64,000 nucleotides of DNA from Rhodothermales bacterium (GTDB taxonomy: Bacteria > Bacteroidota > Rhodothermia > Rhodothermales > BA12): positions 588,455-652,454 of the forward strand of contig CAWJEJ010000004.1 of the NCBI GenBank assembly GCA_963841855.1. The letters run 5' to 3'. A model generated the notes under the pieces. The model had not been told where the DNA came from and did no database searches. It worked only from the letters and a program-made list of their open reading frames with translations. Of the stretch, positions 3,036-37,522 are shown one piece after another. How positions within the stretch are numbered: position 1 is the stretch's first letter; each line of letters begins with the position of its first letter. A program made the position numbers and the translations under genes.

Positions 3036-3077
3036 CCGACCTGCGTATCTTGCCCAAACAGCATCCAGCCGGTATCT

Positions 3078-3503
3078 ATGGGACGCATCGTAGGCAACGT
3101 CGACACGCCCGCCAAGCGCCGCAACGCGCACCTGCGCTCGTGCGCCGAAGTCGTCCGCCTGCTCGCCCAGCGCGCCGAGATGGGATCCGAAGAGCGCGAC
3201 ATGGCGGCGTTTCTCGTCTTCAGCTTGAGAGGCATCTGGACGACGATCGACGAGAGCGCCCAGGTCTGGGACGAGCGCGACTATTGGAAAAAGTCCGAAG
3301 CGCTCCGCCACAAATGGCGCTGGACCCGGACGCAAGCCGACACCATCGAGCAGATCCTCCGCGCCGACACGCTCAGCGCCCTGCCCGTCCCCCTGATCGA
3401 ACTCGTCGGCCATCTGGGCGACGTGACCGTGACCCAAATCACGCGCGACTCGGACTGGTGGGTCGGCGCCTACCGCGCGCTGATGAAGCAGCAGGCGGCG
3501 TGA
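3078..3503 (+). CDS. hypothetical protein
   Basis: 141 aa ORF with balanced, non-shadow composition (WDERDYWKKSEALRHKWRW). No family recognised. Confidence 0.5.
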   Translation: MGRIVGNVDTPAKRRNAHLRSCAEVVRLLAQRAEMGSEERDMAAFLVFSLRGIWTTIDESAQVWDERDYWKKSEALRHKWRWTRTQADTIEQILRADTLSALPVPLIELVGHLGDVTVTQITRDSDWWVGAYRALMKQQAA

Positions 3504-3537
3504 AGTGAGCGTGCTTGGCGTCCTGAAACGAGCGGGT

Positions 3538-4317
3538 TTACTCGCTGCTGAACCCGATGCCGAAGCCGAAGCCGCTGAACGTGCCTTCGAAGTCGCCGGT
3601 CGGGTCGGTGCGGTGGTCGTAGAAGTAGCGCGCGACGAGGGCAGGGCGCAGCCAGCCTGCGATGGCTTTCTCTCCGCTGAGGCGCAGCGACAGGTCGCTC
3701 ATGATTTTGAGCGAGGTGGCATCGAAATTTTCTCCATCGAACGTGCGCGCCTGGGTGACGGTCGTGAGGATGCCAAGGCGCAGCGCAGGAATTTCCAGAG
3801 CGTGGGCGGCCTGTATGCCCATGTCGATGCCGCCCACCGGAGAACCCTGCTGCTCGCTGTTCGCCCCGGCCCCGCTGATGAGCCCACCGATGCCGATGGC
3901 ACCAAGGACAGGGAGCCCCACCATCAGCCCGCCCTCGGCACGAGGTAGGATTGCACCGTCCAAGTAAAGCCATCCCTTACCGTTTTCGCGGCCGTTGAGA
4001 AACTCGGTTCCCGTATCGCAGTCGACTATCGCACACCACGCCTGTTGCAGCGTGCCCGTCACATCGATGCGGACGTACTGGTAGATTTGGTCACCTCCGA
4101 CACCCATCACATAGCCGCCGAGCGTATACGGCGCGTTCGTTCCGCTGCTCGTAATGGCCTGACCGGGAGTGGTGTAGGTAACGTCGTGCGAGATGAACTC
4201 GAACGGAAGGCCAACGAGGACGAGCGACTGGGGAGCACGCGGCATGAACCCGCCGCTCTGGGCGGACGCGACGGCGGGAAGGAGGACGAACAGAATCGAG
4301 GCGAGGAGAGCGCGCAT
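3538..4317 (-). CDS. secreted / outer-membrane hypothetical protein
   Basis: Signal peptide MRALLASILFVLLPAVASAQ followed by Gly-rich beta-type sequence. Lies 27 nt downstream of the giant T9SS protein gene on the same strand. Confidence 0.6.
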   Translation of the reverse strand: MRALLASILFVLLPAVASAQSGGFMPRAPQSLVLVGLPFEFISHDVTYTTPGQAITSSGTNAPYTLGGYVMGVGGDQIYQYVRIDVTGTLQQAWCAIVDCDTGTEFLNGRENGKGWLYLDGAILPRAEGGLMVGLPVLGAIGIGGLISGAGANSEQQGSPVGGIDMGIQAAHALEIPALRLGILTTVTQARTFDGENFDATSLKIMSDLSLRLSGEKAIAGWLRPALVARYFYDHRTDPTGDFEGTFSGFGFGIGFSSE

Positions 4318-4343
4318 GTGCTGGAGAGGTGAGGATGAGAGAT

Positions 4344-7300
4344 TCAGCGGCCCAGCACGACGACGGTCTTGGCGACGCGCGATCCGTCGTGTTCGAGCAC
4401 GAGCAGGTACGTTCCCGCTGCCAGCGACCCGGCGTCAAGGCTCGCGTGCTGCGGTCCGGCGGCCAGCGTCCGGTCCGCGAGCAGGGCGACGCGGCGGCCC
4501 ATCAGGTCGTAGAGCGTCAGGCGTGCGTGTCCGGCCGTCGGCAGGGCGAAGGGGACAGACGAGACTCCAGTCGCCGGGTGCGGCCACGTACCGCCGAGCG
4601 TCAGGGCGAGAGTCGACACGTCGGCTTCAGTGGACGTGGCGACGGTCGACAGGTCGAGGCGGGCCAGTCCATAGGTGAAGCCTTCCTGCTGGAACGTGGA
4701 CGAATAGAGTTCTACCTGTCCGTCGGCGTCGAGGTCGGTGGCAAACGCGAGGTCGGCGTTGAGGAAGCGCGTCTGAGCGCCCAGTCCGCCGGTCCCGCCA
4801 CGGAAGATCATCAGGTCGGTGCCGCCGGTGTTGGAATCGCGAATCGTGCCGGCGAGATCGAGGACGCCGTCGCCGTTGAGGTCGACCAACTGCAGGCCGC
4901 GCAGGTCGGACGAGACGACGGTCTGCCGCTCGGGTGCGCCGAACGATCCGGCTCCGAGCGATCCCGCCGTCGACGTGTTGCGCAGCACGACCAGTTCCTG
5001 CTGGGTGAAGTCGTCGCTCGTGTATGCGCCCTTGCCGACCAGGTCGGCCTTGCCGTCGCCGTCCACGTCGCCCACGGCATCGAGAAAGAGCGAGCCGGTG
5101 AACTGGACGCTGTCGACGGCGAACGACGACGCGGACAGATCGGACGCTCCGGCGTTGCGCATTGTGACGACCAGCGGGCCAGCGGAGTTGAAGCGCGAGT
5201 AAGCCAAGTCGACTTTACCATCGCCGTCGAAATCGGCGTCCCACAACGCGACGTCGCTCTGGCTGAACAGGCGGCTGTTGTAGGGCCACGACGCCCGTTT
5301 GCCGAAGCGCAGCGCGCCCGGTCCGCTCAGGTTTTCCATCGCGACGATCTCGCCCTTGCGCAGGACGACGATCAACTCGTCGCGCCCGTCGCCGTTGAGG
5401 TCGACGGCGTTCATGCCTGCCGGTGCGGATTCGAACTCCAACTGGACGCCCGGCGCGAACGCGAGCGTGTCGCCGCTGCTGCGGTTGAGCGAGATGGTGA
5501 TCAGGCCCGACTCGTCGCGGCGGAACAGCGCAATGGCGATGTCTAAGCGTCCGTCGCCGTCGAAGTCGTGGCGCATCGTCGACTGGAGGAAGTCGCTCTG
5601 GTAGTTTGCCGCCACGTAGCCTTGCGCCGTCGCCGGTTGGCCCCAGCCGTTTCCGTTCGCAAGCGCCGGGAAGACGAGCACGTTGGTGATCTGGTCGAGC
5701 CGCATCAGGTCGACTTTGCCGTCGCCGTTCATGTCGGCCACGTCCCAGCGATTGTTGCGATTGGTGTTGCGCGTCGAGAAGAGCGTGTCGCGCCCGGTGA
5801 TGCCGTCGGGGTTGAACGGATACGTCTGCGTCCGGCTGACGCGCACGAGCGGGCCGTCCGCTGCACTCCCGCCACTCGCCACGCGCACGCGCCCGGCGAT
5901 GACCCCGCGCGGCACGCGGACGGTGAGTTGCGTCGCGGACTGCGCGGTTATTTCGCCCTCGACTAATCCGACGAACGCTTTGGCATCAGCCGCGAAGCCC
6001 GTTCCATCGACCGTAATCGACTCCCCGGCGACGACCGAACTCGGCGACACCGCAGAGATGGTCACGCCAGCGTCAGCCGCTCCGGTGGAGAACGGAACGC
6101 CCGATGACCACGGACCGGCCATCAGCCCCGCCGTCGCTCGGACGCGGGCGAACAGCGACGCGCCAGCAGGCAATCGCCGCAGCGTCAGGCTGCCGTCCCC
6201 TGTCCCGCCGACGCGCACGATGCTGGTCGAATCGAACGCCGCCGACGTGTTGACTTCGATGTGGTAGCGGAACGCCTCGGCGACGTTGGTCCACGAGAAG
6301 GTGGCGGACGCGCCGGTCACCGCAGCGGTCAGCGCGGGAGCGGTCAGAGTCGGCGTGCCCGCGATCCAGTCGACCGTTGCGGCCTCACCTTCCTGTCCCC
6401 GGTTATTGATCGCGCGGACCGACAGATGCACGCGGTTGTTGGGGCGCGTCTGGACGGGCGGAACGACGAAACTGGTATCGGACGTGACGTAGCGGGCGGC
6501 GTAATCGGCGGCGAAGCTGTTCCGCGTCTCGACGGTGACCGAGTAACGCTGAGCGGATCGGACGCTCGTCCACAGCGCAGCGATGGGACCGCTGCGCGTT
6601 GGGCTGCCTGCCGTAGGCGTGAGGATCGTCGGCTTGGGCAGATTGGCGTCGTCGAACGTGGCGAAGCGCACGAACGAGGCGCGCGCTCCTTCGCGTCCGC
6701 CCTGCGTCGAGAACATGCGCAGCTGGTAGGTCGTCGCTCCGGTGATGAGCGGCGAGGTGAGAACAGTACTGGTCACGCTGCCGCCGCGGACCGTGTCGGA
6801 GAGAATCGGGAAGAAGTCGAACACGCCGACGCTGTTCGGAACGGGGATTCCGCGCTCGAGCAGGAGCGTGTAGCCGTCGGCTCCGGCTACGGCGTTCCAC
6901 TCGACGCGGATGCCCGGGTCGAACGCGATGCCCGTTTGCCCTTGGGTCGGCGAGGTGATCGTCGGCGCGGCGATGTTGGGCGGCTCGGGCTGGGTCGTAA
7001 TCGCGATGCCCGGCGTCTCGGCCCCGGCGATCACGCCCACGCGCGCCCGGACACTCCACGTGTAGGTGCGGCTGCCTTGCAGGTTGGTGACCTTGAACGT
7101 GTCTGCGAGCGAAAAGCGCTGCGTGAAACTCTGGGGCGACGAGGCAATCGTCACGTCGTAGCCCGTCGCCCCGGCGACTGGCGTCCAAGAGAAGCGAACA
7201 CCTCGGTACGGAACGTCGGTGCCCGCCATCGGGCGGATCTGCGTCGGCGCGGCCGGCGGAGTGACGGGACTGAGCCCGCCCAACGCCAAGTCCGACGTGT

Positions 7301-29728: not shown

Positions 29729-31024
29729 TCACCCCAACCCGACACGCTCGAAAATCTCGTCGACGCGGCGCGTGTGGTAGGTGGGATCGAAGAGCGCGTC
29801 GATTTGCTCTTCGGTCAAGTGTTCGCGGATGTCGTCCGCTGCCAGGACGAGTGGCTGGAACGGCTCGCCATTGGTCCACGCTTGCATGGCGCGCGGCTGG
29901 ACGCGGTCGTAGGCGTCCTCCCTACTCAGCCCGGCCTCGACCAGGGCGAGCATCACGCGTTGGCTGTTGTGCAGACCGTACGTGCGGTCCATGTTGGCGC
30001 GCATGGCGTCGGGGAAGACCGTCAGGTTGTCCAGGATGCTCGTCATCCGCGTCAGCGCGTAGTGGCAGACGGTCGTGGCGTCGGGCAGGATGACGCGCTC
30101 GACCGACGAGTGGCTGATGTCGCGCTCGTGCCACAGCGCCACGTTCTCGTACGCGCTCACCATGTAGCCCCGCAGCAGTCGGCTCATGCCGGTCACGTTT
30201 TCGCTTCCGATCGGGTTGCGCTTGTGCGGCATCGCCGACGATCCCTTTTGCCCCGCCCGAAATGCCTCTTCGGCCTCGCGCACTTCGGACCGCTGCAAGT
30301 GACGCACCTCGACGGCCATCTTTTCCAAACTCGCTCCGATGCCCGCCAGCGTCGACATGTAGAAGGCGTGACGATCGCGCTGCAGTGTCTGGGTCGAGAT
30401 CGGCGCGGCGGCGAGGCCCAGGCGTTCGCACGTCAGGCGTTCCACCTCGGGCGGCGTGTGGGCGAACGTGCCGACGGCTCCGCTCAGCTTACCCACTTCG
30501 ACGCCCTTGGCCGCCAGTTCGAAGCGTTCGATTTGGCGTTCGATTTCGGCGTAGTAGAGCGCCAGCACCAGCCCAAACGTCGTCGGTTCGGCGTGGACGC
30601 CGTGCGTTCTTCCCATCATCAGCGTCGTCTTGTGCTCGACTGCACGCCGGGCCAGCACGCCCCGCATAGCGTGCAGCGCCTCGCGGATCAAGCCGTTGGC
30701 CTTCTTGAGCCGGACGCCCCACGCCGTATCGACCACATCCGTCGAGGTCAAACCGTAGTGAATCCACTTGCGCTCGTCGCCCAGCGTTTCGCTGACGGCG
30801 CGCGTAAAGGCGACCACGTCGTGCCGCGTCTCCCGCTCAATCTCGGCGATGCGCTCCATGCTGAACGACGCCTTTTCGTACAACGCGTCGATATCGGCAG
30901 CCGGAATCGCGCCGATCTGCGACCATCCCCAGCAAGCCGCCAGTTCCACGTCGAGCCACGCGTCGAACTGCCCCTTCTCACTCCACAGATCGGTCATTTC
31001 GGGACGGGAGTAGCGGTCGATCAT
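29729..31024 (-). CDS. purB: adenylosuccinate lyase
   Basis: 431 aa with MIDRYSRPEMTDLWSEKGQFDAWLDVELA, GLTSTDVVDTA and GSSAMPHKRNPIGSEN (fumarate-lyase signature). Confidence 0.97.
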   Translation of the reverse strand: MIDRYSRPEMTDLWSEKGQFDAWLDVELAACWGWSQIGAIPAADIDALYEKASFSMERIAEIERETRHDVVAFTRAVSETLGDERKWIHYGLTSTDVVDTAWGVRLKKANGLIREALHAMRGVLARRAVEHKTTLMMGRTHGVHAEPTTFGLVLALYYAEIERQIERFELAAKGVEVGKLSGAVGTFAHTPPEVERLTCERLGLAAAPISTQTLQRDRHAFYMSTLAGIGASLEKMAVEVRHLQRSEVREAEEAFRAGQKGSSAMPHKRNPIGSENVTGMSRLLRGYMVSAYENVALWHERDISHSSVERVILPDATTVCHYALTRMTSILDNLTVFPDAMRANMDRTYGLHNSQRVMLALVEAGLSREDAYDRVQPRAMQAWTNGEPFQPLVLAADDIREHLTEEQIDALFDPTYHTRRVDEIFERVGLG

Positions 31025-31068
31025 GGCGCGTCGGCGGTTGGGTGAAGAGGAAAGGTACCGGCGAGCAA
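30905..31068. repeat. direct repeat copy A (functional purB codons 1-40 plus ~45 bp upstream)
   Basis: Aligns with 31859-32022. About 110 of the first 120 positions are identical by manual alignment. Homology continues more weakly through TTGGGTGAA...AAAGGTACCGG. Confidence 0.8.
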
Positions 31069-31185
31069 GGCATCCGATAGCGAAAGGCTGTGGGATTCAT
31101 GCGCCCCCGCGACACGGCACACGATGGGAACCTGGTAGCACACACCTCGTGCTATGCAGGCGTCGCCACGCATACACATATTCTC

Positions 31186-31479
31186 ATGATTCGAACGTTT
31201 GCCGATACGGCGACGCTTGACCTGTTCAACGGAGCGCCCACCAAAGCCGCTCGCAAACGCCTTCCTGTCTCACTTCATGTCCAGACGAGCCGGAAGCTTG
31301 ATCTCCTCAACGCTGCTGCTTCGGTCGAAGACTTGCGAACTCCGCCGGGCAATCGGCTGGAAGTGCTAAAGGGCGACCGGGCCGGCCAACACTCCATCCG
31401 TATCAACCAGCAATACCGTATCTGCTTCGAGTGGACGCGTGAAGGTCCGTGCCAAGTTGAAGTCGTCGATTACCACTAA
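31186..31479 (+). CDS. higB: HigB-family type II toxin (RelE superfamily)
   Basis: MIRTFADTATLDLFNG...DLRTPPGNRLEVLKGDRAGQHSIRINQQYRICFEWTREGPCQVEVVDYH is a near-consensus HigB sequence. Toxin-first order is typical of higBA. Confidence 0.9.
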   Translation: MIRTFADTATLDLFNGAPTKAARKRLPVSLHVQTSRKLDLLNAAASVEDLRTPPGNRLEVLKGDRAGQHSIRINQQYRICFEWTREGPCQVEVVDYH

Positions 31480-31788
31480 ATGATGATTCGTCTACCTACC
31501 CACCGTCCTCCCACGCTTCCCGGCGAGATGCTCCGAGCCGAGTTTCTCGATCCGATGAGGCTGTCGCAAGCCGAGGCTGCGCGCGCGATGGGCATGCCGT
31601 TTCAGCGGCTCAACGCTGTCGTTCAGGGCCGCAGATCCGTCACGCCGTCGACGGCCTTACGGCTGGCGCGCTACCTGGGTACGACACCAGAGTTGTGGCT
31701 CAATCTGCAACGCAACGTCGACCTGTATCATGCGATAAGGGAAGAGGGTGCGGCACTCGAATCCATCGTGCCAGTCGAGCACAAGTAG
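31480..31788 (+). CDS. higA: HigA-family antitoxin (XRE-type HTH)
   Basis: PGEMLRAEFLDPMRLSQAEAARAMGMPFQRLNAVVQGRRSVTPSTALRLARYLGTTPELWLNLQ matches the HigA HTH. ATG directly abuts the higB stop. Confidence 0.9.
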   Translation: MMIRLPTHRPPTLPGEMLRAEFLDPMRLSQAEAARAMGMPFQRLNAVVQGRRSVTPSTALRLARYLGTTPELWLNLQRNVDLYHAIREEGAALESIVPVEHK

Positions 31789-31849
31789 AGATTCTGCTCG
31801 CCCATTGGCTCAACGAGTGCGCCACTCGTGCGGAGAGACTTGCCGCATG

Positions 31850-31978
31850 TTACTCTGAAATCGCGCCGATCTGCGACCAACCCCAGCACGCCGCCAGTTC
31901 CACGTCGAGCCACGCGTCGAACTGCCCGCGCTCGCTCCACAAGTCGGTCATTTCGGGGCGAGAGTAGCGGTCGATCAT
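31850..31978 (-). pseudogene. orphan duplicate of the purB 5' end (42 codons then stop)
   Basis: Minus-strand ATG at 31978 gives MIDRYSRPEMTDLWSERGQFDAWLDVELAACWGWSQIGAISE*, nearly identical to the purB N-terminus. Similarity stops abruptly at 31858. Confidence 0.85.
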
Positions 31979-32022
31979 CGGTTCAGCAGCTTGGGTGAAC
32001 CGCAAAGGTACCGGAAACCCAG
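31859..32022. repeat. direct repeat copy B (truncated purB 5' end plus upstream sequence)
   Basis: Partner of 30905-31068. See the pseudogene entry. Confidence 0.8.
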
Positions 32023-32174
32023 GTGAGCAAAACGCAAAAACCGGACAGATCGAAGAGGTCTGATCGGTCGGAATTGTTCAAGCGGTGAGCTGAGAGCAGT
32101 GTTGGGATCCAAGGGAATCGATCGAGCCGAGACTGCTTGCCAGCGCGCCGGAAGTCGATCAGACCCTGCCGGTG

Positions 32175-33098
32175 TCATCCGCGCTGTGCCTTGAACCAGT
32201 CGACGGTTGTGCGCAGGCCGTCGGCGATCGAGACCTGCGGCTGCCAGCCCAGCGCCTGCTGCGTGTGGGCGTAGCTGAGGACGCTGCGCATTTGCTCGCC
32301 CGGCTTGGCGGCGACGTGCCGCTCGTCGGTGTGGCCGCCGGTATAGTCGTTGATGGTGCGGAAGAGCGTCACCACGTCGGTCTCGACGCCCGTCCCGACG
32401 TTGAAGATGCCGCTCTGCTCGTGCTCCAGCACAGCCAAGTTGGCGCGCACTACGTCACCGACGAACACGTAGTCGCGCGTCTGCGAGCCGTCGCCGTTGA
32501 CGACGGGCTGCTCGCGGTCGAGCATCTTTTCGGCGAAAATGGCGATCACGCCCGCCTCTCCGTGCGGATTCTGGCGCGGACCGTAGATGTTGCCGTAGCG
32601 CAGGATGGCGAAGCGGATACCGTGCGTCTGCTCGTAGAAGTAGAGGTATTTCTCGGTCACCAGTTTGGTGATGCCGTAGGGCGAGAGCGGCCGGAGCGGA
32701 TGCGATTCGTCTTGAGGCACGTACTCGGGATCACCGTAGATGGCCCCGCCGGTCGACGCGAAGACGACCTTCTGCAACCCACCTTCGCGTCCGGCTTCCA
32801 TCAGGTTGAGAAAGCCGTCGACGTTGATGCTCGCGTCCAGGCGCGGGTCGGCTACGCTGCGGCGCACGTCCATCTGCGCGGCGTGGTGCACCAGAACCTG
32901 GGGACGATGCGCGCGGATCAGATCGGCCGCTTGGGTGCTGCGGATGTCGGCGCGGTGGAAGGTGGCACCGGCGGGCACATTGCGCTCGAAGCCGCTGCTC
33001 AAGTCGTCCATCACGTGCACGTCGTGCCCCAGCCCGATCAACGCGTCGGCAACGTGCGAGCCGATGAACCCGGCGCCGCCGGTAACGAGGATGCGCAT
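32175..33098 (-). CDS. NAD-dependent epimerase/dehydratase (UDP-glucose 4-epimerase-like)
   Basis: MRILVTGGAGFIGSH Rossmann start and YGITKLVTE (YxxxK) catalytic motif. ATG at 33098 preferred over the track start at 33212. Confidence 0.85.
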   Translation of the reverse strand: MRILVTGGAGFIGSHVADALIGLGHDVHVMDDLSSGFERNVPAGATFHRADIRSTQAADLIRAHRPQVLVHHAAQMDVRRSVADPRLDASINVDGFLNLMEAGREGGLQKVVFASTGGAIYGDPEYVPQDESHPLRPLSPYGITKLVTEKYLYFYEQTHGIRFAILRYGNIYGPRQNPHGEAGVIAIFAEKMLDREQPVVNGDGSQTRDYVFVGDVVRANLAVLEHEQSGIFNVGTGVETDVVTLFRTINDYTGGHTDERHVAAKPGEQMRSVLSYAHTQQALGWQPQVSIADGLRTTVDWFKAQRG

Positions 33099-33225
33099 GA
33101 CGAAGGGGCGAAAGGAGAACGGTCGAGCGCGCAAGATAACCGCGTGAGCAGACGGAGACGCGCGCCAATCCACTCTGACGCGAAGGGCGAGGCGCCCTAT
33201 CTTGAAGCGCATTCATTCCGCTCCC

Positions 33226-33726
33226 ATGACCGATACTCTGTTCACTCACCTGTCGTCGTCCGAGGGCGGTGCTCGCATAGCCGACGTAGCCGACAGGGGC
33301 CGCGCCACGCGCACCGCCGTCGCCGCAGGTCGTGTGCAGGTCGGCCCCGAAGCGGCGCGCCTGATCGCCGAGGGCAGCGTCCGCAAGGGCGATGTCTTCT
33401 CGGTCGCGCAGATCGCGGGCATCTTGGGCGCCAAGCAGACGAGCCGCCTGATCCCGCTGTGCCACGACGTGCAGGTCAAAGGCGTCGAAGTCACGCTCGA
33501 ACTCGACGAGGAAGGCGACGCCGTCGACGTGCGCGCGTTCGTCAAGACAGTCGGCGAAACCGGCGTCGAAATGGAGGCGCTGACGGCCGTCTCGGTCGCA
33601 TCGCTGACGGTCTACGACATGTGTAAGTCGATCAACAAGGAGATCGAGATCTCCAGCATCCGCCTGCTCGCCAAGACCGGAGGCCAGAGCGGCGACTACC
33701 TCCGCCCCGCTTCGGACGACCGCTGA
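33226..33726 (+). CDS. moaC: cyclic pyranopterin monophosphate synthase accessory protein MoaC
   Basis: [49 protein letters not shown] and [12 protein letters not shown] are canonical MoaC motifs. Confidence 0.93.
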
Positions 33727-33837
33727 CTCACGGCCTCGCGCCAAGCGCAGGCGCGTGTTTCTGCGGCTCGAATCGTCGTCTTGCGAGTTTGAGGTGACGA
33801 TGCCGCAGACGCGTCGCTCGCTCTCGAATTCAGCTCA

Positions 33838-33848
33838 CCCCCCCCCCC
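33838..33848 (+). repeat. C11 homopolymer 15 nt upstream of the floA start codon
   Basis: cagctcaCCCCCCCCCCCtctacctcgctctcATG, counted directly across lines 33781 and 33841. Confidence 0.9.
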
Positions 33849-33862
33849 TCTACCTCGCTCTC

Positions 33863-34840
33863 ATGGAAATCTTTGGCGCTACCGCAGGCGTGTTCATCGT
33901 CGCCGCCGTCATCGTCGGCATCTTCGTGCTGTTCTACTTCGTGCCGATCCGGCTGTGGATTGAGGCGACCACGAGCGGCGTCCGCGTGCCGATCTCGACG
34001 CTGATCGGGATGCGCCTGCGTGGCGTCTCACCCGTTTCGATCGTGCGCCCGCTGATCATCGCACACAAGGCAGGCATTCCGGTCACGCCCAACCAGCTGG
34101 AGACGCACCACCTGGCGGGCGGCAACGTGCGCCGCGTCGTCAACGCCCTCGTCTCGGCCGACAAGGCGCGCATCGACCTGCCCTTCGATCAAGCGACGGC
34201 CATCGACCTGGCCGGGCGTGATGTGCTCGAAGCGGTTCAGGTGTCGGTCAATCCGCGCGTGATCGAGACGCCGCCGATCTCGGCCATCGCCAAGGACGGC
34301 ATCCAGCTGCGCGCCATCGCACGCGTGACCGTGCGCGCTAACATCAAGCGGCTCGTCGGCGGCGCCGGAGAGGACACCATCATCGCCCGCGTCGGCGAAG
34401 GCATCGTCTCGACGATCGGCTCGGCCCAGTCGCACGCCGCGGTTCTCGAAAACCCGGACGCCATCTCCAAGACGGTTCTGGCCAAGGGGCTGGACAGTGG
34501 AACGGCGTTCGAGATCCTATCGATCGACATCGCCGACGTGGACGTGGGCGAGAACATCGGCGCCAAGCTCCAGACGGATCAGGCCGAGGCCGACCTGCAC
34601 GTCGCCCGGGCCAAAGCCGAAGAGCGGCGCGCTACGGCCGTCGCTCAGGAGCAGGAGGAGCGCGCCAACTTGGTCGCTGCCGAAGGCGAGGTCCCCAAAG
34701 CCATCGCCGACGCGTTTCGCAGCGGTAACCTGGGCGTGATGGACTACTACAACCTGCGCAACATACAGGCCGACACCAAGATGCGCGAGTCGCTAGGCAA
34801 GTCGGACGAGGAAGGCGGCGGCATGGGTCGGTCGCTGTAA
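33863..34840 (+). CDS. floA: flotillin-like protein FloA (UPF0365)
   Basis: [32 protein letters not shown]...[23 protein letters not shown]...[18 protein letters not shown] matches the FloA family. ATG at 33863 chosen. Confidence 0.9.
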
Positions 34841-34847
34841 GAGACTT

Positions 34848-34891
34848 CGCCCGCTCACCCACTGGTGACCGCTCACCAGCGAGACTGTGTT
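34848..34891 (+). repeat. partial (3'-half) copy of the attC-like repeat at the left edge of the cassette array
   Basis: GCCCGCTCACCC (12/12), CACCAG and CTGTGTT occur in the same order and similar spacing as in the 3' halves of the full repeats. Confidence 0.4.
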
Positions 34892-34910
34892 CGACCCCTT
34901 GCTCACGAAT

Positions 34911-35261
34911 ATGTATTGGGTGCTCGTCTCCGCTCCCATCTTGGTCGGTCTCGTAGGCGCTGTATTTGCCCAAAGGGCTTACGTACGTGGCGCATTTGAC
35001 GCCGCTGCCTTCCGCCTGCTGCTTGCGGCAGTGACCGCGGCGGTCGTGGGAGTGAGCGGCATTTGGTACAACGGCGTCAGTTCGCTTGGCGACACGGATG
35101 AGGTCGGTTTCATAATGGGCCATGGTTCACCTGCCCTTCTCGCTGAGGGGTGGCACGTCGGTATGCGTTTCTCACCTGTCGGCGCTTCCGTCGCAATCGT
35201 GCTCGCCGTAGCTGGAATGATGATTTGGACCAAGCACACTTCTTCACTCCGCGCGGTGTAA
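34911..35261 (+). CDS. cassette ORF: small 3-TM membrane protein, hypothetical
   Basis: MYWVLVSAPILVGLVGAVF... with three hydrophobic helices. The stop TAA is the TAA of the repeat core gtgTAAc. A GTG at 34887 is an alternative start. Confidence 0.45.
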   Translation: MYWVLVSAPILVGLVGAVFAQRAYVRGAFDAAAFRLLLAAVTAAVVGVSGIWYNGVSSLGDTDEVGFIMGHGSPALLAEGWHVGMRFSPVGASVAIVLAVAGMMIWTKHTSSLRAV

Positions 35262-35376
35262 CCCACGGCTGCGGGCGACGCAAAGGCGGGCGGTTTTGCT
35301 CTGCGTCAGGTGCGGCGATCACATTGCCCGCTCACCCTTCGGCGCGGTTTGCGCACCAGAGTTTTATCTGTAATGC
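35255..35376 (+). repeat. attC-like structured repeat, copy 1
   Basis: GGTGTAACCCACGGCTGCGGGCGACGCAAAGG...TTTGCGCACCAGAGTTTTATCTGTAATGC. Alignable over its full length with copies 2 and 3. Confidence 0.6.
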
Positions 35377-35436
35377 GGCTTGCCGAACCGTGTCGGCAAG
35401 ACAGAGTTGGGAGGAGCTCAACCAGTCGCCAAACCA

Positions 35437-35637
35437 ATGAGCGTCCAGCAACTAGAAACGGCTGTCGTAGAACTCAGCGAAAACGAACTGTCTCGGTTCG
35501 GCCAGTGGTTTGATGAGTACCGCGCCGAAGCATGGGATCGTCAGATTGAGCGTGACGCACAGTCAGGCCGACTCGACGCCCTCATCTCCGAGGCGCAGGC
35601 TGACATTGCCGCCGGTCGCGTCCGCGAGACTCCGTGA
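35437..35637 (+). CDS. type II antitoxin (partner of the RelE/ParE-like toxin)
   Basis: 66 aa with LSENELSRFGQWFDEYRAEAWDRQIERDAQSGRLDALISEA, a pattern I recall from antitoxins paired with this toxin type. GTGA overlap with the toxin gene. Confidence 0.6.
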   Translation: MSVQQLETAVVELSENELSRFGQWFDEYRAEAWDRQIERDAQSGRLDALISEAQADIAAGRVRETP

Positions 35638-35900
35638 GGCACCAAACAACTGCTGCCTTCTGGTCGCGCTTTGACAAACTGGACTCTTCGGTTCAGCGAC
35701 TCGCACGCAAGAACTATGCGCTGCTCGAAGCGGACGAGCGTCATCCATCGCTGCATTTCAAGAAGCTCGCCGGTACATCTCCGCGGTTGTGGTCAGTTCG
35801 AGTAGGAATAGATCATCGTGCTCTCGGCATTGAGGAGGGCGATGCCATCTTCTGGTTCTGGATCGGTCCGCATGACGAATACGACCGTCTCACGGATTGA
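35634..35900 (+). CDS. RelE/ParE-superfamily type II toxin
   Basis: FWSRFDKL...HPSLHFKKLAGTSPRLWSVRVGIDHRALGIEEGDAIFWFWIGPHDEYDRL fits the RelE/ParE-like toxin pattern (HPSLxFKKL...SVRI...YRA...WFWIGxHxxYD). Confidence 0.75.
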   Translation: MRHQTTAAFWSRFDKLDSSVQRLARKNYALLEADERHPSLHFKKLAGTSPRLWSVRVGIDHRALGIEEGDAIFWFWIGPHDEYDRLTD

Positions 35901-35904
35901 AGAC

Positions 35905-36025
35905 GGCATAACCCACGGTTGCGGGCGACGCAAAGGCGGGCTGTCTTGCTCTGCGTCAGATGCGGCGATTACATTGCTCGCTCACCCTTCGGCGTGATTG
36001 CGCGCCAGATCCTCGTCTGTTATGC
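35905..36025 (+). repeat. attC-like structured repeat, copy 2
   Basis: GGCATAACCCACGGTTGCGGGCGACGCAAAGG...ATTGCGCGCCAGATCCTCGTCTGTTATGC. Terminal 7-mers GCATAAC / GTTATGC are perfect inverted repeats. Confidence 0.65.
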
Positions 36026-36432
36026 CGCTTAGCGAGGCTGAGGTACACGAGCGCGCCTTCGTCAAGGCTTTCGCTGCTCCTAATCGCCGCGAACGATACC
36101 TCGGGCTGCTCAGCACCAGTAAAGGACGGCGCAAGTTCGTGGCGGGACTCCATCATAACCTCGACCTTGACTCCCGCTATGCCGAGCGCTTGGATGCCGG
36201 ACACAACCGAGAGGAAATCGAAGCAATCATAACACGCGCGCTGGGCGCAGATTCAGAGTGTTGGCTCATCTCAGATTACCCGGAGTTGGACGGAAAGCGG
36301 CTTCTTCTCGGTGAGGCGCTTCGAGCTATTTCTGGCTACGGCGGAGGTACAATCATCTCCTGCGTGGCGGGCAAGTCGGCGTATTACGAGGGCGAGGATC
36401 GCGGAGCGAGGCTCATCTGTCGTAGGAAGTAG
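36022..36432 (+). CDS. cassette ORF: hypothetical protein (136 aa)
   Basis: The ATG lies inside the distal repeat core GTTATGC. MPLSEAEVHERAFVKAFAAPNRRERYLGLLSTSKGRRKF... has balanced composition. No family recognised. Confidence 0.5.
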   Translation: MPLSEAEVHERAFVKAFAAPNRRERYLGLLSTSKGRRKFVAGLHHNLDLDSRYAERLDAGHNREEIEAIITRALGADSECWLISDYPELDGKRLLLGEALRAISGYGGGTIISCVAGKSAYYEGEDRGARLICRRK

Positions 36433-36435
36433 AGC

Positions 36436-36554
36436 GGTGTAACCCAGGGTTGCGGGCGACGCAAAGCTGGGCGGTTTCCGCTATTCGAGTGCGGTGCTAC
36501 ATTGCCCGCTCACACGTCGGCGTGCTTTGCGCGCCAGAGCCTCGTCTGTTCTGC
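36436..36554 (+). repeat. attC-like structured repeat, copy 3
   Basis: GGTGTAACCCAGGGTTGCGGGCGACGCAAAGC...CTTTGCGCGCCAGAGCCTCGTCTGTTCTGC. Starts 4 nt after the preceding stop codon. Confidence 0.6.
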
Positions 36555-36579
36555 AGCGCTACCATCTGACCGCTCAAAT

Positions 36580-37101
36580 ATGGACGACACAATCGGCACG
36601 TGGGCACTAAACGCTTACCGCATGGTCGAGAGTGAGATGGTCCCAACGCTTCCAAGCGAGAAGCGGGCGGCTATCGGCACGTTCCTCGTCGGCGACGACT
36701 TCGACTGTCTAGACGAGTTGGAGTTGGCGCGCGGTCTCCAACTCCGCGTTCTACCCAGCGGCCGGTTCGAGCAGACTGCCGAGCCCGCCTTCGACCGAAC
36801 GATGATCGACTTCGAGGGTGCTACCACGTCCCTCGGTTCTCCGGACTTCGTGGTGGCATTCGACGGGCGGCTGATCCGCGTTGGGTCTCGACTGTACCTC
36901 CATCCCGATGACGCCCCAGCACGGAGCACCTCGGAAGGGCGGTGGGTCGAAGCGCAGCTGCTGAGGTACGACGATGGCGACACGGTTGTGTGCGAGTGGA
37001 TCGAGAAGCGAGGGACATCGCTGTTTCGCACCGCGTCAATGGTGACGGACGAAGCCTACCTGAGTCGCCTGACGCTCCGGTACGAGAGGAAACGAGCGTG
37101 A
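36580..37101 (+). CDS. cassette ORF: hypothetical protein (173 aa)
   Basis: MDDTIGTWALNAYRMVESEMVPTLPSEKRAAIGTFLVGDDFDCLDELELARGL... has acidic, balanced composition. No family recognised. Track start at 36502 lies inside the repeat and is rejected. Confidence 0.5.
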   Translation: MDDTIGTWALNAYRMVESEMVPTLPSEKRAAIGTFLVGDDFDCLDELELARGLQLRVLPSGRFEQTAEPAFDRTMIDFEGATTSLGSPDFVVAFDGRLIRVGSRLYLHPDDAPARSTSEGRWVEAQLLRYDDGDTVVCEWIEKRGTSLFRTASMVTDEAYLSRLTLRYERKRA

Positions 37102-37260
37102 GGCATGGCCCGGCGCCGCAGAACCCGGCGCCGCAGGCCGACCCAGAGCGTCAGCGTTCGTGGCTCGCGCAGGCTTTGGCATATTCTGCCTCTCGTCCCA
37201 CACACCAGTCCTCAATTCTGGGAGCCAGAGCCTCTTCTGCCAGGCGCCTCGTCTTGCTGC
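37102..37260 (+). repeat. degenerate copy of the attC-like repeat
   Basis: Starts GGCATGGCCCGG (compare GGCATAACCCACGG) directly after the stop at 37101. Ends CCAGAGCCTCTTCTGCCAGGCGCCTCGTCTTGCTGC (compare CCAGAGCCTCGTCTGTTCTGC). The core TAAC/GTT positions are mutated. Confidence 0.3.
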
Positions 37261-37297
37261 TCTTCTTGTCATTCGGAGTGGATTGTGAGCAAGTCTA

Positions 37298-37522
37298 ATG
37301 ATCAGCCAGTCAGCGTTCCCGAGGTTTCGACCCGAACGCGAGCCGGAGCTTGAACCAGATACTATCCCCGAGTCTGCGTCAGCAGTCGAGCGCCAAGAAC
37401 CTGTGACCCGAGCGCTCACGTCGGACGCGGTAGCCGTGCCTGACGCTGTCCTGCTTCGCTCGATGCCGACCACGCTTTCTGAGTGGCACGAGCAGTACGG
37501 CGCGTTCGCCGCCAACCCATGA
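37298..37522 (+). CDS. possible small cassette ORF, hypothetical
   Basis: 74 aa acidic ORF (EPELEPDTIPESASAVERQEP...LSEWHEQYGAFAANP) on the same strand as the cassettes. No homology recognised. Confidence 0.25.
   Translation: MISQSAFPRFRPEREPELEPDTIPESASAVERQEPVTRALTSDAVAVPDAVLLRSMPTTLSEWHEQYGAFAANP

Follow-up and report, generated by a model that had tools for sequence, protein, structure and literature searches.

A HigBA toxin-antitoxin (TA) operon sits between two diverged direct repeats of the purB start in the window, the 64,000-nucleotide stretch of Rhodothermales DNA analysed here. The two repeats represent a resident and an incoming allele of the same chromosomal segment; the intact gene carries the incoming 5′ end, and the resident 5′ end is left beyond the operon as a stump. 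The arrangement was absent from the relatives, and bracketing by a duplicated gene end recurs at other loci with related higBA. On balance, we favour an origin in which the resident purB acquired a segment of about 0.95 kb from another Rhodothermales lineage, most likely by host recombination; a dedicated integrase is the less likely route.

Results

A higBA operon lies between two copies of the purB start

The working purB (29729-31024, minus strand) encodes a full-length adenylosuccinate lyase of 431 aa (Pfam Lyase_1, 1e-61; ADSL_C, 5e-26). Repeat search and alignment delimited copy 1 of the repeat (30905-31070, minus strand), which is joined to the intact gene and comprises codons 1-40 with about 46 nt upstream, and copy 2 (31859-32023, minus strand), which comprises a displaced purB 5′ end, again with about 46 upstream nt. 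The copies share one orientation, lie 954 bp apart from start to start, and are the only two of this segment within the 64-kb window. Their coding parts (30905-31024 versus 31859-31978) are identical at 110 of 120 nt (92%, blastn E 3e-42), with a 38-nt block free of mismatches at CDS positions 52-89, and the repeat extends 5′ of the ATG at 79% identity (31038-31070 versus 31991-32023). The initial annotation had put a second purB start at 31859-32022 in the same orientation and had counted about 110 of 120 coding matches by eye; alignment and blastn placed every element as claimed and returned the same count.

A stump ORF of 42 codons (31978 down to 31850, minus strand) belongs to copy 2. Its product equals PurB over 40 codons except for K17R and then runs S-E-stop where the homology ends, as had been described for the distal copy. 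Homology between the copies stops at 31859, giving an abrupt non-homologous junction (31858|31859); on the opposite side it fades gradually. On the resident side, the next gene upstream is a galE-like NAD-dependent epimerase gene (32175-33098, minus strand; PF01370, 2e-63). In the segment between the copies (31071-31858, 788 bp), higB-higA was the sole gene content, which a Pfam search of the segment confirmed for the initial annotation, and a tail of 70 nt (31789-31858, plus strand) runs from the 3′ end of higA to the junction. The insert has a GC content of 0.57-0.61, compared with 0.65 for the window. No known RNA family was detected in 30500-37300, and a scan of 30800-32300 gave neither sigma-70 promoters nor intrinsic terminators; TTTG-N17-TACCTTTG might be read as a Bacteroidetes-type -33/-7 promoter.

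By domains and gene order the inserted pair is a HigBA type II TA module, with toxicity, neutralisation and autoregulation putative. higB (31186-31479, plus strand) encodes a RelE/ParE-fold toxin of 97 aa (PF05015, 1e-16, covering profile positions 19-91 of 91), and higA (31480-31788, plus strand) an HTH (Xre-type) antitoxin of 102 aa (HTH_3, PF01381, 5e-10). The higB stop codon (31477-31479) abuts the higA ATG at 31480, and this toxin-first order is kept in all related loci. HigB has more than 2000 homologues; among the matches listed most are exactly 97 aa long, and the nearest non-self homologue is 71% identical. The 97-aa form has no exact match on record; the protein is recorded as P0001, a 126-aa version with a longer start, which led to the independent contig discussed below. 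About 30 nt upstream of higB, a palindrome TAGCAC-N7-GTGCTA was read in the sequence (31136-31154, plus strand). In L162, L169 and L175 the form TAGCAC/T-N7-GTGCTA likewise stands upstream of higB, L168 has related palindromes, and the element is likely the HigA operator within the higBA promoter. Searches for the same cassette yielded only distant coding-region matches on plasmids and no match in phages.

The flanking repeats are a resident and an incoming allele

Between the copies there are 7.5 synonymous and 2.5 non-synonymous changes (pN/pS 0.085, binomial P < 1e-3), in line with the earlier reading that the differences are mostly synonymous or conservative. Synonymous divergence between them (pS 0.31) falls in the range of between-species orthologues over the same 120 nt (0.29-0.42). 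Differences that are nearly all synonymous, together with a between-species pS, indicate two alleles rather than a duplication made in place, and the claim that one purB copy is foreign gains support from the same values.

The stump proved to be the resident copy. Over 40 aa its protein is identical to PurB of the relative L001 and of P0244, and its upstream flank contains a GTTTTTGCGTTTTG...TTTCCGGTACCTT region that L001 and L176 likewise carry ahead of purB. The resident upstream region past the repeat (32024-32042, minus strand; GGTTTTTGCGTTTTGC...) occurs at equal spacing in L001 and L176, is absent upstream of copy 1 and is cut off from the working gene. Since this region is held in common with L001 and L176, the stump is assigned to the resident lineage, which agrees with the proposal that the distal copy is a displaced resident 5′ end. 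The segment 32024-32042 may have a promoter role.

Copy 1 was closest to a different relative. It is identical to L002 at 113 of 120 nt, and both it and L002 PurB carry K17 where the stump carries R17; about four changes are unique to each repeat copy. Past the repeat, the upstream region of the working gene (31077-31098, minus strand; GAATCCCACAGCCTTTCGCTAT) is homologous to the L002 purB upstream region, with 19 of 22 positions matching at equal distance from a CCGGTACCTTT motif, and none of 500 shuffles reached this score. Because its upstream flank is of the L002 type, the working copy is the foreign one, and the incoming allele covers at least the first 120 nt of the working purB. The target gene was thus rebuilt, as had been suggested, with an incoming 5′ end and an L002-type upstream region. 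At informative sites, the first ~335 nt of purB were L002-like at 25 of 32 positions versus 44 of 93 further on (permutation P ~0.04), and purB is also mosaic elsewhere, at its 3′ end; an L002-like 5′ tract reaching to about +335 might, tentatively, mark a crossover.

The relatives carry a single purB start

L001, L002 and L176 served as proxies for the empty site; each has a single purB start and no higBA. Relatives from the genome scan were 84-88% identical to the window in nucleotides, and the best match in a metagenome scan reached 72% protein identity. The window PurB shares 97% identity with the L001 and L002 proteins, and no exact match to it is on record. A second purB N-terminus occurred in 0 of 158 other purB loci, leaving the window alone among the 159 loci with an N-terminal match. 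An ancient conserved tandem, the case that the initial annotation had set against its own reading, was not seen in L001, L002, L176 or the 158 purB loci. Its proposed search for higBA tied to purB 5′ fragments in other genomes likewise drew a blank: no HigBA homologue was encoded at any further purB locus. Each relative had a different gene upstream of purB, so that purB alone offers homology at this site. No donor genome with higBA beside purB was found among the purB loci, which counts against a host-recombination route.

Gene-end bracketing recurs around related higBA operons

Three of the nine other loci with related higBA showed gene-end bracketing, so that the pattern fits 4 of 10 loci in the HigBA clade, window included. 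The duplicated ends are the 3′ ends of clpB (L162/L163; repeat 61 nt, 97%), fbp (L166; 87 nt, 97%) and adh (L169; 150 nt, 85%, pN/pS 0.24), so that the four cases involve four different target genes. Control loci totalling 1.75 Mb contained only seven comparable repeat pairs. Two further related loci (L172, L175) are integron cassettes with attC sites (AGATAAC...GTTATCT). L172/L173 and L175 had been considered as gene-end duplications and were left out of the count, their repeats being integron attC sites in several copies. With three related loci bracketed by gene ends and two more in integron cassettes, the remark in the initial annotation that a TA pair is unusual as sole cargo did not hold for this HigBA clade.

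The cassettes close around the TA operon, with 67-167 nt on each side. Such a tight fit is not predicted by random circularisation or fragment ends, and it counts against a host-recombination route. The same is true of the adh repeats of L169, which at 85% identity and with a longest identical run of ~19 nt are a poor RecA substrate. Nucleotide homology between the related cassettes is limited to the coding region and the operator; the insert tail showed no similarity to their tails, and no junction or end motif was shared among the four gene-end cases.

Proposed origin and its rivals

In the origin that we favour, the donor would have carried a higBA operon directly upstream of purB and pointing away from it. 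One junction would be homologous, inside the purB 5′ region, and the other non-homologous (31858|31859), joining the higA tail to resident codon 40/41. The outcome would be an intact purB with the incoming 5′ end and upstream region, the resident upstream region and first 40 codons being left as the stump. The most probable route is host (presumably RecA-type) recombination, in which either a small circle of non-replicating DNA would have integrated through one Campbell-type crossover or a linear fragment would have undergone homology-facilitated illegitimate recombination (HFIR); both intermediates are hypothetical. Experiments in E. coli provide a precedent: circular DNA that did not replicate and had homology on one side only integrated mostly by single crossover, giving duplications of 109-950 bp (PMC3240628). 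Recombination between the repeats would delete higBA; if HigB is the stable toxin of an addiction module, losers would be poisoned and the insert kept.

Neither the 788-bp insert nor the ~36 window ORFs scanned contained an integrase, a recombinase or a fragment of an integrase, no tRNA or tmRNA gene that could serve as target was found in the window, and no autonomous ICE/IME partner with a shared att sequence turned up in the collections searched. An attC-like array does lie in the window, 3.4 kb from higBA. The 70-nt tail, however, lacked complementary R″/R′ boxes and an end-to-end hairpin (z -0.9), and an integron cassette was rejected for the window higBA on these grounds and because its flanking repeats are purB sequence. 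A transposon or insertion sequence was also rejected: there was no transposase ORF, there were no inverted repeats at the insert ends, and the flanks are a diverged repeat of 165 bp.

The main rival, a decayed or trans-mobilised integrase element, is possible but rather doubtful. It holds that a site-specific element integrated at the purB 5′ end, with the repeats as attL and attR and the incoming copy as a surrogate gene end; the element would be either a decayed island cut down to its TA module, as in a CIME, or a mini-element mobilised by an integrase encoded elsewhere. Tyrosine-integrase elements, too, characteristically rebuild a gene and leave direct repeats of its end, and CIMEs by definition have kept attL and attR and lost the integration genes (PMC5704250). 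Among related higBA operons, that of L165 directly adjoins an integrase at tmRNA and those of L167 and L168 adjoin tRNA genes (once with a radC fragment), which favours such an element; together with the integron cassettes, these settings count against a host-recombination route. Around the higBA of L167 and L168, tRNA repeat remnants were not detected. A hicAB-only cassette (L135), which lies between perfect 45-nt repeats of the tRNA-Ile 3′ end, points the same way, and under this reading deletion bias together with addiction would explain the compact cassettes. The missing integrase speaks against it, as do the unoccupied purB 5′ ends of the 158 other loci, the different targets and lack of a common junction sequence in the four gene-end cases, and an incoming flank in which L002-type purB upstream DNA of the ordinary kind stands in place of element-specific sequence. 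The initial annotation had envisaged a small circular integrating element; the rebuilt gene and its foreign 5′ end stand, but a self-contained mobile element, for which no integrase, att-like motif or excised form was seen, is not established, since a one-off event of host recombination can give the same structure.

Duplication of the purB start in place, as a target or tandem duplication at the higBA insertion followed by decay of the spare copy, would account for two copies that directly flank the insert in the same orientation. We regard it as very improbable, because it is contradicted by the synonymous-site pattern: neutral decay of a stump predicts mostly non-synonymous changes, whereas 7-8 of the 10 are synonymous. 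Moreover, the stump protein is the consensus of the relatives, unique changes fall on both copies at about four each, the flanks match two different lineage-specific upstream regions, and neither terminal inverted repeats nor a transposase accompany the insert. We know of no transposon that makes a 165-bp target duplication. In a metagenome-assembled contig, where strain mixtures can yield false joins at shared sequence, the arrangement could be suspected of being an artefact of assembly or binning, for instance a chimera in which two strains meet at the purB start. We consider this very improbable: the non-homologous junction 31858|31859 excludes a repeat-mediated misjoin, and the assembly duplication that the initial annotation had feared is ruled against by the ten differences between the copies and by an independent Logan contig (L161, 908 bp) that is 100% identical to window positions 31003-31910 and spans both inner junctions.

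Discussion

Chromosomal TA islets are described, in the part of PMC7232551 that cites Hayes and Van Melderen, as patchy, horizontally transferred and usually without mobility genes, and their movement is presented there as an old open question. The purB locus offers a readable transfer scar, with two gene-end alleles, a non-homologous junction opposite a probably homologous one, and a severed resident upstream region. A tentative proposition, for which the odds are modest, is that TA operons spread between species without mobility genes by travelling with the end of a conserved neighbouring gene. Host recombination would place the gene end and the TA operon together into the recipient's orthologue, leaving a diverged gene-end duplication, and addiction would block repeat-mediated deletion of the insert. 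If this is true, TA islets bracketed by gene ends would be a distinct and recognisable class of integrase-free mobile unit. Should the pattern be general, TA transfers could be dated and counted from a signature that is simple to compute, and RecA versus integrase dependence as well as protection by addiction would become directly testable. At the locus itself, purB now stands behind an incoming upstream region, which may affect its expression, and antisense transcription into higBA would be expected should promoter activity persist in the resident upstream region.

To our knowledge, TA modules have not been reported to spread naturally and repeatedly by Campbell-type integration or HFIR. The products of these two processes pair a homologous with a non-homologous junction, as the window probably does, and resemble it in a duplicated part of the locus and the lack of an element-encoded recombinase; they differ in being laboratory outcomes of conjugation or transformation (PMC3240628). 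SXT/R391 elements in prfC and dusA-specific islands (PMC8409611) likewise hit and rebuild the 5′ end of a housekeeping gene and displace the native 5′ end to the far side. They are, however, 20-100 kb long, come with an integrase and an excision factor of their own as well as a defined att core, and sit at one and the same target across many genomes, whereas the window insert measures 0.8 kb, has no integrase and enters a target that is free in 158 other purB loci. CIMEs (PMC5704250) share with it the flanking repeats, the lack of integration and transfer genes and perhaps an origin as the remnant of a larger element; they are recognised by att sites in common with related autonomous ICE/IME, of which none was found for the window insert in the collections searched. 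Integron higBA cassettes are similar as compact TA-only units of ~0.8-1 kb, and the relatives in L172 and L175 are attC-bounded, but the window higBA is without attC and is flanked by purB sequence. The TA genomic islets and the minimal mobile elements of Neisseria (PMC7232551, PMC3787668) are alike in presenting a lone TA operon amid housekeeping genes, missing in close relatives, free of mobility genes and apparently exchanged by host recombination in conserved flanking genes. Those elements have homology on two flanks and no duplication, whereas the window has homology on one side and a duplicated gene end.

A higBA operon lies between two copies of the purB start

The purB gene (adenylosuccinate lyase; 29729-31024, minus strand; Pfam Lyase_1, 1e-61, and ADSL_C, 5e-26) has its first 120 nt (30905-31024) repeated at 31859-31978 (110/120 identical; blastn E 3e-42), and about 46 nt 5' of the ATG were also alike in both copies (31038-31070 versus 31991-32023, 79%). 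The 788 bp separating the copies (the insert) carried higB (31186-31479; PF05015, 1e-16) and higA (31480-31788; HTH_3, 5e-10) as sole genes, a HigBA module that is, by domains and gene order, of standard type. The distal copy forms a 42-codon ORF (the stump), in which 40 codons equal PurB except for K17R and which stops two codons past the end of homology; the next gene beyond it encodes a galE-like epimerase (32175-33098). The junction at 31858/31859 is sharp and non-homologous, and on the opposite side the similarity fades gradually, as with two diverged upstream regions. The purB-start segment occurred twice within the 64-kb window, and the GC content of the insert was 0.57-0.61 versus 0.65 for the window. 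The initial annotation had described a purB start recurring around higBA, a 42-codon stump and no other gene between the copies, and all these elements were in place exactly as claimed.

To place the arrangement, we compared it with other purB loci (L numbers denote fetched comparison loci). A second PurB N-terminus was found in the window alone (tblastn against all fetched purB loci, 159 with a match), and no HigBA homologue was detected in any other purB locus fetched. The Rhodothermales relatives L001, L002 and L176 each carried a single purB start without higBA, which speaks against the ancient conserved tandem raised in the initial annotation. Judged by these loci, the purB-higBA arrangement is neither ancient nor an insertion hot spot. 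The upstream neighbour of purB differed in each lineage (L001 and L176 have a secreted protein bearing a T9SS tail there, L002 has a histidine kinase and the window has galE), and therefore donor and recipient would have shared homology on the purB side only.

Related higBA operons occur at other gene ends and in integrons and islands

HigB had more than 2000 homologues, the nearest non-self one being 71% identical. Nine other independent loci of the HigB clade were recovered, and the higBA flanks were compared in each. Three of the nine showed the window-type architecture at other genes: the clpB 3' end in L162/L163 (61-nt repeat, 97%; higBA only; both differences synonymous; 39-codon stump), the fbp 3' end in L166 (87 nt, 97%; higBA plus DUF6602; frameshift in the stump) and the zinc-ADH 3' end in L169 (150 nt, 85%; higBA only; pN/pS 0.24, each copy reaching its own diverged stop codon). 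At L166 4620-5492, inside the repeat-bracketed fbp 3' cassette, the DUF6602 gene has a 4-nt overlap with the higA stop, and may be a third component or added cargo of the higBA unit. At the nucleotide level, the higBA loci were homologous only in the coding region and in a TAGCAC-N7-GTGCTA palindrome 5' of higB, and the loci compared shared no end motif. As a control, self-comparison of 160 purB-centred loci (1.75 Mb) yielded no more than seven comparable repeat pairs, among them one that brackets a hicAB-only cassette at a tRNA-Ile 3' end (L135). This cassette (3524-4572, minus strand; 64-aa HicA-like and 96-aa HicB-like ORFs) has on both sides perfect 45-nt direct repeats equal to the 3' end of the tRNA-Ile gene (4496-4572), with no integrase between them.

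Two of the nine loci (L171-173 and L175) held higBA as integron cassettes with attC bounds, and were rejected as gene-end cases because their repeats are attC sites (~150 nt, AGATAAC...GTTATCT, several copies per contig). Their HigB relatives were ~67% identical to the window HigB, and the L171 array also holds a DUF433/DUF5615 pair. In L165, higBA (5001-5629) lies beside a tyrosine integrase (3661-4959) at a tmRNA (3074-3442) on an island edge (3074-5629), which shows that members of the clade are also carried by ssrA islands, at the end near the integrase. Operons just 3' of tRNA genes were seen in L167 and L168, one with a radC fragment, and another within a defence island in L164.

The insert itself is too small for an integrase. 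No recombinase was found among ~36 coding-like ORFs scanned in the 64-kb window, no tRNA or tmRNA gene in the window, and no Rfam match in the purB-higBA region. A transposon was rejected since inverted repeats were not found at the insert ends, and an integron cassette was ruled out since the 70-nt insert tail held no attC-like structure; no integrase, recurrent target or common att core was found, which speaks against an integrative element. The main alternative, possible but less likely, is an origin from an integrase-type element of the CIME kind, which lacks integration genes and retains its att sites (PMC5704250). Integrase elements, too, are marked by gene-end repeats together with a rebuilt gene, related higBA operons are associated with integrase, tRNA genes and integrons, the hicAB cassette sits at tRNA-Ile, and the cassettes fit the operon tightly (67-167 nt on either side); however, the purB target is unoccupied elsewhere, the target differs in each case, no att core common to the cases was found, and the incoming flank is ordinary chromosomal DNA.

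Elsewhere in the window, the stretch 35253-37101 resembles an integron cassette array with attC sites. Three direct repeats of ~125 nt (35253-35379, 35903-36030 and 36434-36557; 80-91% identical) lie between small plus-strand ORFs, each starting with ..G(C/T)(A/G)TAAC and ending with ..GT(T/A)(A/C)TGC; in the second, GGCATAAC pairs end to end with GTTATGCC (DNA fold z -1.8). One cassette carries a plus-strand TA pair, in which an antitoxin-like ORF (35437-35637) precedes a ParE-like toxin (35634-35900; PF24732, 5e-8). The two other cassette ORFs had no Pfam match, and no integron integrase was found near the array.

The repeats are two purB alleles, one resident and one incoming

Ten differences separate the 120-nt copies, seven at third codon positions and the other three within one K/R codon. 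They amount to 7.5 synonymous and 2.5 non-synonymous changes (pN/pS 0.085, Nei-Gojobori; binomial P < 1e-3 versus neutral decay, which would give ~20% synonymous changes), with about four unique changes in each copy. The pS between copies was 0.31, and that of the same 120 nt among other-species orthologues 0.29-0.42. Because the differences are mostly synonymous and pS is at the between-species level, the repeats are, on this pattern, two purB alleles rather than a decayed duplicate. Duplication of the purB start in place is contradicted by the same synonymous-site pattern and is unlikely. An assembly artefact, considered in the initial annotation, is also unlikely, since an independently assembled Logan contig of the locus (L161, 908 bp) matched 31003-31910 at 100% and reproduced both inner junctions, the non-homologous one included.

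The closest relatives at hand were other Rhodothermales, with PurB protein identity of 90-97% and purB DNA identity of about 85-88% in the three loci compared at DNA level (L001, L002 and L176). Upstream of the stump, GGTTTTTGCGTTTTGC-N-TTTCCGGTACCTTTGCGGTTCACCCAA extends past the repeat, and it recurs with equal spacing upstream of the single purB in L001 and L176. Upstream of the working copy (the intact purB start), homology to this type ends at CCGGTACC, and the 22 nt at 31077-31098 (GAATCCCACAGCCTTTCGCTAT) matched the L002 purB upstream region at the equivalent position (19/22; 0/500 shuffles reached the score). The first 120 nt of the working copy were closest to L002 (113/120), and the stump protein was identical to the PurB N-terminus of L001 and of protein record P0244; at residue 17, R is the majority among relatives and K is common to the working copy and L002. 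Because the stump flank matches L001/L176 and the working flank matches L002, the stump and its flank are, by this comparison, the resident purB start, and the working 5' end is the incoming one, with ordinary purB upstream DNA of an L002-like lineage. The purB ATG to higB ATG distance, 161 nt, is normal divergent intergenic spacing, which implies that higBA lay directly beside purB in the donor.

A TTTCCGGTACCTTT-N5-TCACC(C)AA motif lies ~20-35 nt 5' of the purB ATG in L001 (region 2081-2145), L176 (220-283) and the stump (31979-32045); the working copy (31025-31098) retains it from CCGG onward only. One of two lineage-specific variants, GTTTTTGCGTTTTG or GAATCCC..CCTTTCGC, stands 5' of the motif. 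It may be a promoter or regulatory site; neither an Rfam match nor a sigma-70-type promoter was found for it. In L002 (motif region 5871-5940), an AT-rich insertion of ~55 nt (5941-5998; …AATGATTAAAATAGCAGAGATAAAATGAGGAATGGAGAAAAAAAAAAA…), absent from other relatives, moves the motif farther from the ATG, and because of it the PurB of protein record P0243 was called 8 codons longer (439 aa, one gene caller).

Host recombination as the proposed route of insertion

We propose that host recombination would have produced one homologous and one non-homologous junction, the incoming flank being a relative's ordinary chromosomal DNA. One route would be a single crossover of non-replicating circular DNA, which in E. 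coli prevailed for circular DNA with one-sided homology and duplicated 109-950 bp of the locus (PMC3240628); the other would be a linear fragment entering via homology-facilitated illegitimate recombination (HFIR), as defined in the same study. A 38-nt block perfectly identical in both repeats could support strand exchange, and the crossover would fall within the repeat for the circle and possibly beyond it for the linear route. Over its first ~335 nt, the working purB was L002-like at 25/32 informative sites versus 44/93 further on (single-breakpoint max-chi-square permutation, P only ~0.04), and the 3' end also looked mosaic, which suggests recurrent homologous exchange within purB in this group. 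Along the whole gene (29732-31024, compared with L001 and L002), the L002-like stretches were ~+1..+335 and ~+840..+1080, and the last ~80 nt were L001-like (11/13 informative sites).

The initial annotation had proposed that a foreign purB 5' segment rebuilt the gene and displaced the native 5' end as a pseudogene, and the L002-type and L001/L176-type flanks bear this out. It had left the choice between Campbell-type and site-specific integration; the junction anatomy fits a single crossover, and for the site-specific form no integrase or att core was found. Once in place, higBA would be open to deletion if the two repeats recombined. By analogy with TA modules on integrated elements (e.g. 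SXT mosAT), cells losing the operon would be inhibited by residual toxin, and such inhibition would explain retention of the insert.

The recurrent scar offers a way to test whether TA modules spread by hitching onto the ends of conserved genes beside them. The insert fits best among TA 'genomic islets', and how it arrived can still be read from it. It adds a variant to known kinds and does not call for a category of its own: it works like the products of Campbell integration and HFIR, and is similar in its consequences to 5'-end-targeting islands.
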